Below, in pieces: positions 396 through 15,402 of a DNA stretch of 21,652 bases. The translations under genes were made by a program, and so were the position numbers. Every line of letters begins with the position of its first letter. The stretch's first letter is position 1. The stretch is taken from positions 1 through 21,652 of IMG/VR virus record IMGVR_UViG_2516143027_000011; one strand, 5' to 3'. The notes beneath the pieces were generated by a model that saw nothing but the letters and a program-made list of their open reading frames with translations, was not told where the DNA came from and searched no databases. Source of the stretch: a virus. Its lineage: Duplodnaviria; Heunggongvirae; Uroviricota; Caudoviricetes.

Positions 396-421
396 TCAAA
401 AAGCCGCATTATGCGCGGGCT
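396..421 (-). terminator. Putative rho-independent terminator ending the minus-strand late operon
   Basis: GC-rich imperfect hairpin (gccgcattatgcgcgggc on the plus strand) followed on the minus-strand transcript by a U5 run (plus-strand A-run 398-402), directly after the stop at 432-434. Stem has a bulge, so strength is uncertain. Confidence 0.3.
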
Positions 422-431
422 GATGGGATGA

Positions 432-2135
432 TCAGGCGATGATTTTCTGGTACTTACTTCGGGTCTGTCCTGCTTTCTCTGCTGTCTGGGTAAATGCTCC
501 GGCATTGGTTGGCGTACCAACACTGGGGTGCGAATGACTCGCACATTGCTGCGCCAGCTCTGCCAGTAAATCAATGGTGTCCAACATCATGGTCAGCGTG
601 TTTACACTCTCACTGCCGATATGGATGGTTGGCCCCATAATCTGCTGACCGCCCGATGCTACCGATTTGCGTAATGCAGTAATCTTTTCAGTCAGGCTTT
701 CGCCAACCTCCACGGCTACAGCACCGCCCACTTTAATGGACTGCTGTCCTGCTATGTCCGTTTCTTCGTTTCCTTCAATGCTGGCCAGCCTGTTACCTTT
801 CACGGCCTGGCTAAAATCCCCGGCACTGACCTGCTGAATGGCTCCGGCTAGCAGGGTGGCGGTCCCCACCACAATGGTTTTATCCGTGGCTTTAACCGTG
901 GTTTCGCGACTGACCAGATCACGTTGTTCTGTATCTGCTTTTACCGTTCGCACCATCGATGTTTCACTGATGGTCTGATCGGTCTGCCTTACCCAGTCAC
1001 CCGCCAGAGTCACCCTCTGGGATACTTCTTCCCGCTGCTGCTGCAATTGCTCACCGGGTTTAACGTCCGGCAGACTGGTGCCATCCGGTAGCGTCTGCCT
1101 GATAAAAGGTTTATCCGGTCTGCCTCCTGTGAATGCGACCTCAACCAGCGTCCCTTCTGGCGGGAACTGAAACATACCTGAATCATTCCCGGCCATTGGT
1201 ACCGGCAGCGGCACCGCTGAATAAACAGGCGTCTGATTGTCCGGATTTCCGTCTGCGTCAAGCAGCTGCACGTCCACGGCGTAACGTGGCCGGAAGGGAT
1301 CGGCAAAGTTACCGCTTTTTACCGGCTCTGAATGCGCCACGACTCTGGCCATCTTTGGCAAATGAAGCCCGGATGCCAGTTCCGGGTAATGGCTTTCAAT
1401 CTGCCGTTGCGCTGGTGTTTTCTGCAAAGGTTTACCCGTTGCGCGGTTTCTCGGCGTCCATGTGATCGCCATCGTGTCATTAGTCAGGTGAACTTTAGTC
1501 ACGCGTTCACCGTTCATCTCCACCCCTGGCCGCATAGTCTGGATCACTGGTAATGTCACAGAGTTACCGCCAGCAGCCCCCTGGCTGAACTCTGACGGGA
1601 TTTCTACTGGACGACCGGCAAACAATGACTTTTCTGCGCCGCCGACGTAAAGCGAACCATCAGGTAACTGGTACCAGATGTAATCCTGGATACTGAACGC
1701 CCTGCCCAGATTGTTCAGCAACTGATAACCAGTACCGTTATGGGTAAAATGTGGGATGGGGGTATCGCTGTACTGTGCATCAGGCACACTGACCGTGATC
1801 CCGCTGTTTTCTTCCAGCCAGCCCGCAATTTCACGCAAAGTCGGGTGTTGAAACGAACATGGCCACATCCTTTCAAACACACCTACCAGCTCACGAATGA
1901 ACAGGCGCTGAAAACCGTTTTCAGCGGGCTGCGATCGCTCCACATACCCCGTAAACCAGCGCAAAAGCAGATCGGTATACCCCACATCCAGCCGCACCAG
2001 TTTTCCGGTGTAATCGGTTGTTGTCTCTGCGGTGATGAAGCCCCGGCCGCAGCTGTTCAGCTCCAGTACCAGGCTGGCATCCACCAGGTGAACTTCATCC
2101 GTTGAAAGGTAAAGGCGTTTTACTGGTTTCATCAT
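432..2135 (-). CDS. Phage baseplate central spike/hub-like protein (567 aa) with a gpV-like OB-fold motif
   Basis: Last gene of the tail operon; ATG at 2135 overlaps the upstream stop (TAATG). Internal segment PVYSAVPLPVPMAGNDSGMFQFPPEGTLVEVAFTGGRPDKPFI resembles the OB-fold signature of P2 gpV / Mu gp45 / VgrG-type spikes. Assignment is by motif recognition only. Confidence 0.5.
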   Translation of the reverse strand: MMKPVKRLYLSTDEVHLVDASLVLELNSCGRGFITAETTTDYTGKLVRLDVGYTDLLLRWFTGYVERSQPAENGFQRLFIRELVGVFERMWPCSFQHPTLREIAGWLEENSGITVSVPDAQYSDTPIPHFTHNGTGYQLLNNLGRAFSIQDYIWYQLPDGSLYVGGAEKSLFAGRPVEIPSEFSQGAAGGNSVTLPVIQTMRPGVEMNGERVTKVHLTNDTMAITWTPRNRATGKPLQKTPAQRQIESHYPELASGLHLPKMARVVAHSEPVKSGNFADPFRPRYAVDVQLLDADGNPDNQTPVYSAVPLPVPMAGNDSGMFQFPPEGTLVEVAFTGGRPDKPFIRQTLPDGTSLPDVKPGEQLQQQREEVSQRVTLAGDWVRQTDQTISETSMVRTVKADTEQRDLVSRETTVKATDKTIVVGTATLLAGAIQQVSAGDFSQAVKGNRLASIEGNEETDIAGQQSIKVGGAVAVEVGESLTEKITALRKSVASGGQQIMGPTIHIGSESVNTLTMMLDTIDLLAELAQQCASHSHPSVGTPTNAGAFTQTAEKAGQTRSKYQKIIA

Positions 2136-2680
2136 TAACCCAAAGCATCATTGACGGGTTTCAGCACTTTGCGTTCAAACCACGTCAGTTTTTCTTCATC
2201 TTCTCCGGCAGACTGGCCACCGTTCTGTCCCGCACTACCGGCAGTCTGTTTTTTTGCGGTCGTCTTACCTGTTGCCCTGGCCTCTCGCTTTTCCTGCACG
2301 CTGATATGTTCCGCCAGTGTGAATGTCACCAGCCAGGCCATTTTCCCGTCCTGCTGGGGTGCATCCAGCATTCCGCTGAACGTTGCTTCACGAAAATTAA
2401 CAGCACGGGCAACTTCATGCGCCACTCGGTACTTCTGACGATTACCACTGGCATCGGTAGCACTGGCCAGCTCAAAAATACGCTTCAGTATTTCAGGCTG
2501 TTTAAAAGGTATTTCACCGCTGATCCGCAGTTCCTTTCCCTTTGCTCCCTGCTCTGATTTTGTTGTGGCACTGGTCTGGCCGGACTGATCTTTATCCTGA
2601 AATTGCTGTGAAACAGTCACCCGCATGTTTTTCAGCTGGATGGCCTCGCCATTAAGCGCCAGTGTCGGGATCGAAGTCAT
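2135..2680 (-). CDS. Phage tail/baseplate-associated protein of unknown function (181 aa, charged, Q/K/E-rich)
   Basis: ATG at 2680 with AAGGGA Shine-Dalgarno; overlaps flanking genes in an operon arrangement; normal GC. Function not recognised. Confidence 0.45.
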   Translation of the reverse strand: MTSIPTLALNGEAIQLKNMRVTVSQQFQDKDQSGQTSATTKSEQGAKGKELRISGEIPFKQPEILKRIFELASATDASGNRQKYRVAHEVARAVNFREATFSGMLDAPQQDGKMAWLVTFTLAEHISVQEKREARATGKTTAKKQTAGSAGQNGGQSAGEDEEKLTWFERKVLKPVNDALG

Positions 2681-3377
2681 GAATCATTCCCTTTATTCCA
2701 TCAAGATTATCGCCAACCAGCATCATGGCTGCGGTGTAAACGGCAGACTGCTGCGGAATGTCCTTCACCAGTTCCAGTAACGTTGTGCCGGTGTCTCCGC
2801 TGGCAGTAAAAACCCACGCTCTGGCACTCTTCCCCTGTAAGTCATTCAGGCCGCTGGCCACATCACTGATAAGCTGGTCACGCAGCTGCGTGAACTCGCC
2901 CAGCTGTTTTTTCAGCCCTTCGATATCAAATCCGGCACCCGCCACCTTTTGTGCCTGGTTGATTGCCGCAGCAGATAAAGCTGCCCTGCTGGTTGGTACA
3001 GACAGTGGAATGGACGCAGGTAACGCTGCGGCGGTTTTCGCCGGGATCTGCATCTTTTCAATAGCCAGCGCTGCGGCGGATTGCGCCAGCCGTTTTACCT
3101 GCGTGAATGCCGGGGCGGGGAAAATCCCGACCAGGTTATTCAGGCTGGCCATAAAGTTTTCCTGCGTCTGTCCGGTGACCATCATAATCACCACGTCCAC
3201 ATTCCCCCCAGTTCCGGCCAGGCGTTCAGCAAGATAGCGAACAGCATTAACCGGGCTGAGATATGCCCCGTTCGCTGTCTGCTGTCCCAGCCCATAAATC
3301 CACGGATGCGCAGGGACGATCGAACAGTTCAGCGCAGCAACAGAATCCGTGAAGGCCAGACGTGCTTCACGCCACAT
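2652..3377 (-). CDS. Phage tail-associated protein of unknown function (about 241 aa)
   Basis: Start set to the internal ATG at 3377, which has a GGAGGT Shine-Dalgarno 8 nt upstream; the track start at 3413 would overlap the upstream gene by 47 nt. Function not recognised. Confidence 0.45.
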   Translation of the reverse strand: MWREARLAFTDSVAALNCSIVPAHPWIYGLGQQTANGAYLSPVNAVRYLAERLAGTGGNVDVVIMMVTGQTQENFMASLNNLVGIFPAPAFTQVKRLAQSAAALAIEKMQIPAKTAAALPASIPLSVPTSRAALSAAAINQAQKVAGAGFDIEGLKKQLGEFTQLRDQLISDVASGLNDLQGKSARAWVFTASGDTGTTLLELVKDIPQQSAVYTAAMMLVGDNLDGIKGMIHDFDPDTGA

Positions 3378-3954
3378 TTCCAGGCACCTCCGGCCACACA
3401 ATTTCCGGCGCATCTTCCGCTTGAATACGATTCAGTAAAACGCGGTATTTTTTCCATGCGGTAAGTAACAATGTTTCTTCCTGGCTCGCCATGCCTAAAA
3501 CAACAGCATCCTGCAATGTGGCAATGGCAGTATGGGCCTGTTTAAGCAGTCTTATCTTTTCCAATTCTGCCTCACGGGTTAATGCAACTCGCATAGACTC
3601 AGCATCATCCTCCCATTTACTGCCATTCCATTTTTGCCATGCGTTTTCAGGCTCCAGAGTGGTTGTTCCAGCTGGATAATCCCCTGGTGCTGTTATCACG
3701 AACCTTCTAGCGTCTTTCGTATCAAATACAATTTCGCCACGGTGATCTTTAATAGCAATCCATTTCTGTTTTTCTGTATTAAAAATTGCCACGAATCCGT
3801 CTTTTGTTAATGGAGGTTTAATTGTGGTGCAATTGGCTGGTAGTCCTGTGTGAGCGGGAATAAAAGCGTTATCACTACCAATAAACTCATTCGTCTCAGG
3901 ATGAAGTTTATAAACAGTAACTGTTTGATCGATATCACTCATTTTAAATATCAT
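3367..3954 (-). CDS. Tail fibre assembly protein (Tfa, lambda Tfa / P2 gpG family)
   Basis: C-terminal motif LLLTAWKKYRVLLNRIQAEDAPEIVWPEVPG is characteristic of tail fibre assembly chaperones; lies immediately downstream of the tail fibre gene. An alternative start at 3942 is possible. Confidence 0.8.
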   Translation of the reverse strand: MIFKMSDIDQTVTVYKLHPETNEFIGSDNAFIPAHTGLPANCTTIKPPLTKDGFVAIFNTEKQKWIAIKDHRGEIVFDTKDARRFVITAPGDYPAGTTTLEPENAWQKWNGSKWEDDAESMRVALTREAELEKIRLLKQAHTAIATLQDAVVLGMASQEETLLLTAWKKYRVLLNRIQAEDAPEIVWPEVPGNVA

Positions 3955-5561
3955 TAAGCGAGTCTCACGATATAGTTTAATGCAATGTTTTTAACAGTGT
4001 TTTCTGAAGTACCCGCAGCATTAACCGTAATGGTGTGTCCATGCGAACCAATCGCAACAGAGTGCGTATGAGCACCAATACCGACAGTATGTTTATGCTC
4101 CCCAGCACTTGCTGCAGTACCTGATACCGAGTGGGTGTGTGCGCCCGCAGAATTCGTTGCACCTAAGTGAGTTTGAGCAGAGTTCGACGAAGCTACTCTA
4201 CCGGAGCTAACGTTAGCATTATCTCCCTGAGATATCGGATGTGTATGTGCACCTGCTGAAGCAGCTGTTCCGCTAACACTATGGGTATGAGCACCAGTGT
4301 TATTCGTAGATTTAGTTCCATAATCAAACGATGATGTGGTTTTTGTCCCTAAATCGGTATTTGAGGCACTGGCGCTATGGGTATGTGACTTAATATTATC
4401 CTGTTCATAAGATAATACGGCGCGTCCGCTGTTAGGCTTACCTTTAATCGTCTGCCCGCGCATATCAGGAATAACACCCAATGGATACGCAGCAGCCAAT
4501 AATGGATATACTGCCTTATCAAAAGACTGCCCCTGCATAATTGCCCAGCCAGGAGGTGGAATATCTGCTGGCCATGGAAGTGGAACACCAACCGGCAGAA
4601 CATCACTACGACTTAAAACGGCCAGTTCACCCAGCTCCAGGCTTTTTCTTGCTTTCACCTTGTCGCTAACATCAGCAAGGTTTGCATCCTTACGCAAAAA
4701 ATCGCTGCTGGCCTGCTGTTCTCCCAGGCTACCCTTTGGCCGTAAATCCGTGATGTTGCCATCCGCATCAATGCTGGCCACAGCAAACACATAATGCTGA
4801 ACCCCGTTCTGAACATAATCAGCAAGATTTGCTGCCACCGTGATTTTGCTCTGCACATTCCAGACACTGGTCAGTGTCCCTGTCCAGCACACATCCAGCC
4901 AGACTTTTACCGGCTTTGTCGTTACCGTAATATTCTGATTCGCAGCCAGTGACGCACGAAGTCCAGCCACATACCCCGTGCCTTTCGTGACAAAAAACTG
5001 ATTGCCGGTTTTGGCTACCAGATACCCGTTACCAAAAAACGCCGCCGCGCCATAAATATCCATATTTTCCAGGCGCTGGCGTTCATCCATTCCGGCCAGA
5101 CGTGCAGTAAAATCAATCTGCCATGTTTCAGCGGGTGTATTAATCCCGGTTTCCGTTTGTGCGCCATTGTACTCCATCAGAAACGAGCGGGTCAGCACGT
5201 TCCCCTGTTGACCTTCTTTTGTTTTCAGTTTCTGCTGTGATGGTGCATGGACAATCATTGCCAGCGTACCGCTGGCCTTATTGAGCAGACCGATCCAGTT
5301 AAAACTGAAATCACCCACATCTGCGCCCAGCACTACGGAATAGACCACACCGTTTTCATCCACCACACCGGTGCGGGTAACAGACTGCCGGTGAACAATC
5401 TGTGCAGCCGGTGGTAATGTTTCATTGCGGTCAACAGGTGTATCCGGGTTTAAATCCGGCACACTGGCAAAAACAAATTCATCCAGTAGTACCGGTTCAC
5501 CCGTTGCGCCCTGCTGCGCTTTCCAGTTTTCAAACGCCAGTGTGATGGCTGTCTGTGACAT
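3954..5561 (-). CDS. Tail fibre protein (535 aa) with a C-terminal His-rich repeat region
   Basis: AAGGAGG Shine-Dalgarno 5 nt upstream of ATG at 5561. Position between the tail protein I gene and the tail fibre assembly gene. C-terminus carries repeated [15 protein letters not shown] units. Confidence 0.8.
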
Positions 5562-5571
5562 AAAAACCTCC

Positions 5572-6165
5572 TTACAAACTCGCGCTGAATGTTGCGCTGC
5601 GGGCTTCCGTCCCTGCTAACGTCGCCGGGTAAACCACATATTCCCCCTGACCCCACCCGGCCCTGATAACCAGGCTTTCAGGCGTGATCACCTCAAACTG
5701 ATAACGGCGGCATGTTCGCCCGTACTGGCGGATTATCTGGATCAGCAGCTGCGTGTTGTCTGCAATCTGGCTGTCTGTAACCCGAACCAGAATCACATCC
5801 CAGTCGATATCCGGTTGCCGTTCGAACAGCTCCACATAACCAATTCCCAGCCGTTCAAAGATATTGATAAACCCCTCAACTGAACCAGCATCCCGCGCAT
5901 TCACGAAGGCAAAAGCCACACGTTTGCGGAACAGGGTCAACGGTTCACCATCAAAGCGGGTGATATCCCGGTCATAAGCCAGCAGGTTCAGTAATGCCGG
6001 TGTACACGTCAGCGGATCAAACTGATTCATTGGCCAGGTAATCCAGCCGTAAACCTCAGCCCAGAACCGCCGCGCCGTTTTCAGCAATTTCCCCGGTTCG
6101 CCTTTATTCATCCAGGACGGCAGGAACATCCCGGCCAGCTTTTTCATGAACTCATTCATTCTCAA
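5572..6165 (-). CDS. Phage tail protein I (P2 gpI-like baseplate protein)
   Basis: 197-aa ORF immediately downstream of the baseplate J gene, at the position and size of P2 gpI. Start could be 6165 or 6159. Confidence 0.65.
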
Positions 6166-14431: not shown

Positions 14432-14529
14432 AAATCCCCCGAAAAAGGCGGACTGGCCGGTTTCCACGGCGCAGTTACACACAAGGCGTTCTGCCCTCCA
14501 CCGCGTCCGCCTGGCTTGCGGTAGTCTTT

Positions 14530-14691
14530 TTAGTGCTCAGTATTAAAAGTGTGCGTATGTGCGCCTGCGTTATGGTTATATGCACTCACACTATGGGTAT
14601 GTGCCCCCACAGAATGGGTATGTGAGCCTGCGCTATGGTTATATGCACTCACACTATGGGTATGTGCACCTTGTAAATGGCTTTCTTTCAT
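14530..14691 (-). CDS. Small His-rich repeat peptide (53 aa: [53 protein letters not shown]), not in the ORF track
   Basis: ATG at 14691-14689 with AAGGA Shine-Dalgarno about 9 nt upstream, same strand as the surrounding operon, stop TAA at 14532-14530. Fills the otherwise unexplained 266-bp gap between the small-terminase and head-completion genes. Shares the AHTHSVS motif and short nucleotide stretches with the tail fibre C-terminus. Confidence 0.45.
   Translation of the reverse strand: MKESHLQGAHTHSVSAYNHSAGSHTHSVGAHTHSVSAYNHNAGAHTHTFNTEH
14555..14667. repeat. 63-bp tandem direct repeat, two copies with about 50 bp near-identical per unit
   Basis: gtatgtgcgcctgcgttatggttatatgcactcacactatgggtatgtgc (14555-14604) and gtatgtgagcctgcgctatggttatatgcactcacactatgggtatgtgc (14618-14667); period 63 bp = 21 codons. 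Confidence 0.85.
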
Positions 14692-14697
14692 TTGTTG

Positions 14698-15402
14698 TTA
14701 TCCTTGAGTTGTCAGTTTTCGGATACGGGCGGCAATTGTCTGCCGCGCCGTTCTGACGCCAATTTTTGAGTAGTGTTTTTCTGCAATAGCCAGCAGCTGA
14801 TCGGCTTTTTCCAGCGTTTTAATATCATCCACGCCCGCCGCCGTTTTCTGCCCATCGTCATTGCGTAGCAACTCCAGACCGGCAAACTTGAACCATTTGG
14901 CCGTCACCTGCTCATGCAGTCGCCAGGTGTTTGCCACCCGCTCAAACGTGCGGGTGAAATAAGGCTCAACACTTTCCCCGCGCCCTGCGGTTTCCTGCGC
15001 CCATTCCAGCATCGTATCCGCCACAAACGTGGGGAAATTGCTGCGCAACCGATCCGGGGTTGCCTGCTGCTGACTGATTGCAATGTCAGCCCAGTCCAGC
15101 GCCTTATCCAGATCGCCCACGTCAAACAGCCAGATAACACACCAGGCGAAAACCGGATTTGCATACACCTGGCCACTATCCAGATAGGCTTCCACAGTGG
15201 GAACCCAGCGCGGCAACAGCACATCACGTTTATACTCGACGCGATCGGCAATGGTAGGCAGACTTCGAACATGTTCCACATCCGTTTCCAGCGCCCTGAT
15301 CAGCAGGTGCATACTTTCCGTGGTTTCCAGTGCCTGGCTGCGCTTCAGCTTTTGTTCCATTGCAATACGCTGACTGTGACGCTGTGCGGGGGAAAGTGCC
15401 AT
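14698..15402 (-). CDS. Terminase small (endonuclease) subunit, P2 gpM-like
   Basis: ATG at 15402 with GGAGG Shine-Dalgarno, 3 nt after the capsid stop; position between capsid and head completion genes as in P2; size close to gpM. Confidence 0.6.
   Translation of the reverse strand: MALSPAQRHSQRIAMEQKLKRSQALETTESMHLLIRALETDVEHVRSLPTIADRVEYKRDVLLPRWVPTVEAYLDSGQVYANPVFAWCVIWLFDVGDLDKALDWADIAISQQQATPDRLRSNFPTFVADTMLEWAQETAGRGESVEPYFTRTFERVANTWRLHEQVTAKWFKFAGLELLRNDDGQKTAAGVDDIKTLEKADQLLAIAEKHYSKIGVRTARQTIAARIRKLTTQG

Follow-up and report, generated by a model that had tools for sequence, protein, structure and literature searches.

The question raised by this locus is what a histidine-rich array at the end of a phage tail fibre represents, and whether it has anything to do with a second, much smaller histidine-rich reading frame encoded elsewhere in the same DNA. 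The window, meaning the whole stretch of 21,652 nucleotides that was analysed, is an E. coli prophage, with the ESSI2_ev phages (Peduoviridae, genus Quadragintavirus) as its nearest sequenced phage relatives. The tail fibre gene is located on the minus strand at 3954-5561, with its stop codon at 3954-3956, and encodes a protein of 535 residues that was recognised through the ORF listing, Pfam and the PHROG tail fibre families. The array falls within 3954-4400 on the same strand, corresponding to residues 388-535 of the fibre. Pfam matches three parts of the protein, namely an N-terminal PF12571 domain (residues 3-158), a Collar domain, PF07484 (residues 325-372), and PF03335, ‘Phage tail fibre repeat’, which older work on tail fibres knew as the GxHxH ‘His box’ and which scores 31.2 bits against a cutoff of 20. 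The PF12571 (Phage_tail_fib) domain, encoded at 5088-5555 on the minus strand (E 2.1e-31), is presumed to attach the fibre to the baseplate. Upstream of the fibre lie genes with a match to Baseplate_J (E 1.8e-29) and a marginal one to Tail_P2_I (E 3e-4; 21.1 bits, just above the cutoff of 20.6). In its N-terminal PF12571 domain and its position behind these J and I genes of the baseplate, the fibre follows the P2 gpH type. The fibre region is at least 99% identical in 10 complete E. coli genomes (99.7-99.8% in the 9 listed), and a fibre copy of 99.8% identity is labelled in RefSeq as a ‘phage tail-collar fiber domain-containing protein’.

The fibre gene is followed by a gene at 3367-3954 on the minus strand, the start of which overlaps the fibre stop codon. 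The 195-residue product is, on the strength of its matches, a predicted tail fibre assembly chaperone of the Tfa or T4 gp38 type, as it is recognised by Caudo_TAP PF02413 (E 4.7e-32), belongs to PHROG 105 (E 3.9e-76), which also holds T4 gp38, and is 25% identical to T4 gp38 itself (E 7e-18). Beyond tfa, three genes in the same orientation occupy 432-3413 on the minus strand and encode proteins of about 241-253, 181 and 567 residues, all of which are hypothetical proteins in RefSeq. The 567-residue product is called a ‘baseplate protein’ in the ESSI2_ev129 record NC_049394.1, an unusual placement behind a fibre module.

That the fibre ends in a histidine-rich array had been proposed in a sequence-only reading, and every peptide string quoted there is found in the protein, although its count of at least four His-x-His units was too low. 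Seven HxH motifs are present, starting at residues 393, 425, 439, 475, 489, 498 and 507, and these are encoded respectively at 4377-4385, 4281-4289, 4239-4247, 4131-4139, 4089-4097, 4062-4070 and 4035-4043. The last 150 residues contain 15 of the 18 histidines of the whole protein. When these residues were shuffled, the mean number of HxH motifs was 1.4, and seven or more were reached in a fraction of 5e-5 of 20,000 shuffles. The array is a repeat of motifs at the level of the protein and not of the DNA, with Tandem Repeats Finder detecting no tandem repeat in 3900-4500 and no long direct repeat being found in the fibre DNA either. Two identical 15-residue units, at residues 423-437 and 473-487, share only 25 of their 45 nucleotides. 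One is encoded at 4251-4295 in the ascending stem and the other at 4101-4145 in the descending stem, both on the minus strand; the same units occupy both stems in the family consensus, and the 20 nucleotide differences include switches between AGY and TCN serine codons. Since the peptides are identical despite these differences, the repetition is old and maintained at the protein level, which implies purifying, long-term selection for the same 15-residue peptide on both strands of a putative needle.

The identity of the array is revealed by comparison with the distal tip of T4 gp37. A phmmer search of the PDB aligned fibre residues 322-535 with residues 29-242 of the chain in 2XGF, the structure of the T4 gp37 tip, at E 5.3e-81, and BLASTP against full-length T4 gp37 aligned residues 318-535 with 806-1026 at 62% identity (E 2e-80). 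All 14 histidines that act as iron ligands in T4 pair one to one with histidines of the fibre. On the ascending side H883/885 of T4 corresponds to H393/395 of the fibre, 915/917 to 425/427 and 929/931 to 439/441, whilst on the descending side 966/968 corresponds to 475/477, 980/982 to 489/491, 989/991 to 498/500 and 998/1000 to 507/509. A resemblance to the gp37 tip had been raised on the basis of the HxH repeats, and the array proves to be homologous to the T4 iron needle and not merely similar to it. The fibre thus has the features of a 2XGF-type tip, namely similarity in the tip domain, seven HxH sites, a tip insert between the two stems and a chaperone gene downstream.

Transfer of the T4 subdomain borders (PMC6957217) through the gp37 alignment divides the end of the fibre into five parts, all encoded on the minus strand. 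The collar or knob (residues 322-391, 4389-4598) contains the PF07484 match (E 2.8e-10) and has 48 of 68 residues identical to T4 gp37 at about 813-881. It is followed by the ascending stem (residues 392-441, 4239-4388) with the first three HxH motifs, where 36 of 50 residues are identical to T4 882-931. The tip subdomain insert (residues 442-468, 4158-4238) is devoid of HxH and retains just four of 27 residues of T4 932-959, with one gap. The descending stem (residues 469-518, 4008-4157) then carries the remaining four motifs and matches T4 960-1009 at 34 of 50 positions, and a C-terminal strand that returns to the collar (residues 519-535, 3957-4007) is identical to T4 1010-1026 at 15 of 17 positions, its columns being invariant in an alignment of 36 homologues. 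Identity to T4 gp37 hence amounts to 68-88% in the collar, the stems and the C-terminal end, in contrast to 15% in the tip insert.

In T4, seven iron atoms are arranged along the needle, and replacement of H929 or H931 with alanine is lethal (PMC6957217). The three copies of each HxH motif come together on the axis, giving six histidines per metal ion and seven ions per fibre, as described in PMC6957217 and in the passages of PMC11705849 that cite Bartual et al. 2010. The metal sites of T4 have the structural role of stapling the stem, and the receptor contacts reside in the histidine-free tip insert (PMC6957217). By analogy with T4, the last 215 or so residues of the fibre described here would form a receptor-binding tip of the T4 gp37 and lambda Stf type, in which three chains intertwine to generate first the collar and then a thin needle. 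Each chain would run outward along the needle (residues 392-441), form part of a globular tip (residues 442-468) and then run back (residues 469-518). Along the axis of the fibre, the three symmetry-related copies of each HxH motif would bind one metal ion octahedrally through six histidines, the ion being Fe2+ in T4, and seven such ions per fibre would rigidify the stem. Host recognition is predicted to come from the hypervariable tip insert and not from the histidine array, and folding is expected to depend upon the Tfa/gp38-type chaperone encoded directly downstream. Taken as a whole, a metal-stapled trimeric tip of the gp37/Stf type with its receptor contact in the insert is very probably correct; formation of the trimer, the identity and number of the metal ions and the site of receptor contact are read across from T4. 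The proposal that the array is a metal-coordinating receptor-binding tip consequently holds for the domain as a whole, whereas for the array itself it needs to be amended, as in T4 the histidines belong to the scaffold rather than to the binding surface (PMC6957217). Among eight T4 tip residues at which alanine is lethal for plaque formation, one alone is retained in the fibre (I933, as I443), which suggests a receptor other than the OmpC and/or LPS glucose bound by T4. The specificity conferred by the insert at residues 442-468 may accordingly be one not yet characterised.

The second histidine-rich frame is not part of the fibre. This micro-ORF, located at 14530-14691 on the minus strand, encodes 53 residues consisting of almost nothing but GxHxH units, matches PF03335 with 32.7 bits against the cutoff of 20, and is preceded by AAGGA 9 nucleotides before its ATG. 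At the DNA level it is a tandem repeat with a period of 21. The family to which it belongs has conserved ends, MKESHLQG at the start and HTHTFNTE[H/Q] at the finish, with a variable number of repeat units in between, such that versions of 32, 32, 33, 47, 53, 61, 68, 78, 78 and 82 residues were found. Further members are encoded at L001:14296-14532, L002:28231-28329, L005:451-636, L006:451-687, L007:450-551, L010:3001-3249, L011:3001-3207 and L012:1196-1294, where the prefix denotes the related locus, and the gene is always flanked by gpM, which encodes the small terminase subunit, and the gene for head completion. Annotations given to it elsewhere are ‘hypothetical’, ‘phage tail protein’ and ‘tail fiber protein’. 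A protein search returned only two clusters of homologues, a scan of one genome per species returned none, and a scan of viral contigs added three more members along with two ordinary fibres. The micro-ORF is cleanly absent from at least 13 related E. coli prophages. It is, therefore, a separate accessory gene of variable length (32-82 residues).

The slot between gpM and the head completion gene (about 14483-14700 in the window; L003:353-448 and L004:449-646 elsewhere) is itself a site of variable cargo, which when empty is reduced to a 96-nucleotide spacer. In ESSI2_ev015 and ev040 it is occupied by an unrelated 65-residue ORF labelled ‘L33’ that has no convincing Pfam match. A scan for promoters and terminators around the micro-ORF detected nothing, so there is no indication that the gene is a moron with transcription of its own.

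The sequence-only reading had seen the fibre as the apparent donor of the micro-ORF repeat. More broadly, the fibre array might have been donated recently to the micro-ORF, or be exchanging with it, with the two products acting together, for instance through a micro-ORF product that mimics the stem or delivers metal when the fibre is assembled. Both genes match PF03335, both are members of late-gene clusters and have the same orientation, and they share one DNA match of 19 of 20 nucleotides, yet this best match is confined to a single GAHTHSV unit, and paired back-translations of GAHTHSV with phage codon usage do as well in about 1.2% of draws, whilst the pairs of units open to comparison number about a dozen. 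The micro-ORF of ESSI2_ev129 shares no more than 11 nucleotides with the fibre of its own phage, and no fibre gene among 50,697 phage records matches the micro-ORF DNA. Moreover, in six of the prophages that lack the micro-ORF the fibre and tfa region is at least 99.7% identical and located at the same 11.08-kb distance. Searches with blastn-short, both inside the window and between fibres, the codon-sampling simulation and the search of the phage records were thus all negative with respect to a donor, and the idea in its full form is improbable. Neither recent donation by this fibre nor a functional dependence between the fibre and the micro-ORF is supported, although a distant origin of the micro-ORF from some fibre array of histidine motifs is plausible. 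It is a rather doubtful, if somewhat better, suggestion that the micro-ORF product is a stand-alone HxH ‘mini-needle’ of variable length or a metal-binding peptide, encoded in the late head operon and with a function undescribed in phages. It may, for example, be a metal-stapled trimeric appendage of the virion or a metal-sequestering factor, and may interact with the HxH stems of the fibre. The micro-ORF is the only item of the locus with residual novelty and is more curious than the fibre tip.

A further alternative grants the gp37 needle fold to the fibre and assigns to the sites either another metal, such as Zn2+ or Ni2+, or a role in metal-aided receptor engagement along the lines of ‘Ferrojan horse’ siderophore-receptor mimicry. 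The identity of the metal has been established for T4 only, and octahedral sites made up of six histidines can accept several divalent ions, both of which count for another metal; the stem residues near the histidine motifs are, however, about 70% identical to those of T4, and the same site geometry is therefore expected. Ecological or uptake roles have been proposed for HxH-bound iron (PMC11705849), which would favour metal engagement, but in T4 the ions lie buried along the axis of the fibre, and the residues that bind the receptor are found in the histidine-free tip (PMC6957217). This alternative is accordingly quite unlikely.

An AlphaFold2 monomer model of the C-terminal 214 residues, built with the 36-sequence alignment, gave a mean pLDDT of 48 and a pTM of 0.24, too low for a fold search, a poor outcome that is to be expected because the domain would be an obligate intertwined trimer. 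The last alternative, that the stretch is a low-complexity flexible linker without a defined fold or metal sites, draws on this low confidence and on the biased composition (Gly, Ala, Ser, Thr and His) and is hardly credible, given the 62% identity to a needle that has been crystallised and is rigid, the 14 histidines aligned one to one with T4 and for the most part invariant in 36 homologues, the excess of HxH over composition-matched shuffles (p about 5e-5), and the two identical 15-residue units kept despite 20 differences in 45 nucleotides. Such a linker had been named at the outset as the finding that would overturn a metal-binding tip, and it is effectively refuted by the gp37 homology.

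With the gp37/Stf-type tip as the favoured reading, the next consideration is how such a module came to be carried by this fibre. Modular exchange of the receptor-binding domain had been suggested, and the architecture bears it out, in that a P2-type N-terminus (PF12571, in a Peduoviridae prophage) is joined to a tip of the T4/lambda type. Exchange on a finer scale is indicated by local blastn against ESSI2_ev129, a P2-like Quadragintavirus and the closest sequenced phage relative, where identity is 92.8% over 4311-5700 and 79.4% over 3300-4097, with nothing aligned over 4098-4310. The latter interval (residues about 418-488, minus strand) covers the upper stem, the tip and the start of the descending stem, and the gap in the alignment shows that a cassette with conserved His-motif sequence at either border has been swapped. 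The chaperone gene has diverged along with the cassette. The swap supports modular exchange, and constitutes one further documented exchange of a tip cassette between close relatives. In the fibre of ESSI2_ev129 (L001:3754-5328) there are six HxH motifs in place of seven, and an FDYGTK segment is duplicated; the predicted number of metal sites thus varies between close relatives.

The tip family is widespread. A tblastn search with the 214-residue domain found matches in 669 of 50,697 phage records, including Fels-1 and SEN4, with identities of 63.7% for T4 and 61.2% for lambda Stf, and a protein search recovered 1356 homologues at E <= 1e-10, mostly tail fibres of E. coli prophages. In the alignment of 36 homologues little or no variation is seen in most of the His motif columns, whilst the segment between the third and fourth HxH motifs is hypervariable, in its length as well as in its sequence. 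The fibre tip is a real and well-conserved copy of an already known module that is very common in E. coli prophages. It opens no new question, and its value is one of annotation, in that the T4 structure provides the borders of the domains, the positions of seven predicted metal sites and the extent of a 27-residue specificity insert. For the engineering or prediction of host range in this prophage of the Quadragintavirus type, the unit to be swapped is the cassette that the conserved His motifs enclose, together with its Tfa.

Three known systems are related to this locus. The first is the distal tip of T4 gp37 (2XGF; D10 and D11), with which the fibre shares the order of the subdomains, nearly equal subdomain lengths, seven aligned HxH motifs, a gp38-type chaperone gene directly downstream and an almost identical run of 17 C-terminal residues. 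Unlike in T4, where the tip is mounted on the shaft of the 1026-residue gp37, the tip is here borne by a 535-residue fibre of the P2 type, and the tip insert is just 15% identical, such that the OmpC/LPS specificity of T4 cannot be assumed to apply. The Stf/Tfa system of lambda has the same C-terminal domain (61% identity by tblastn), and the fibre-tfa junction at 3935-4151 in the window has 82-86% DNA identity to several lambdoid phages. According to PMC3157838, T4 acquired the C-terminus of g37, along with g38, from a lambda-like temperate phage, and the Stf/Tfa module of lambda and the E. coli prophages represents the presumed source pool. Stf differs in having its own N-terminal attachment domain, whereas the fibre studied here has PF12571 and attaches to the baseplate of a contractile tail. 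Finally, P2 gpH/gpG has the same gene order of baseplate J, tail protein I, fibre and fibre assembly protein, and the same PF12571 N-terminus. A presumed difference from P2 is the C-terminus, which a domain of the gp37/Stf type fully accounts for here, as judged from the PDB search, and tfa is followed by three further genes, among them that of the 567-residue ‘baseplate protein’.
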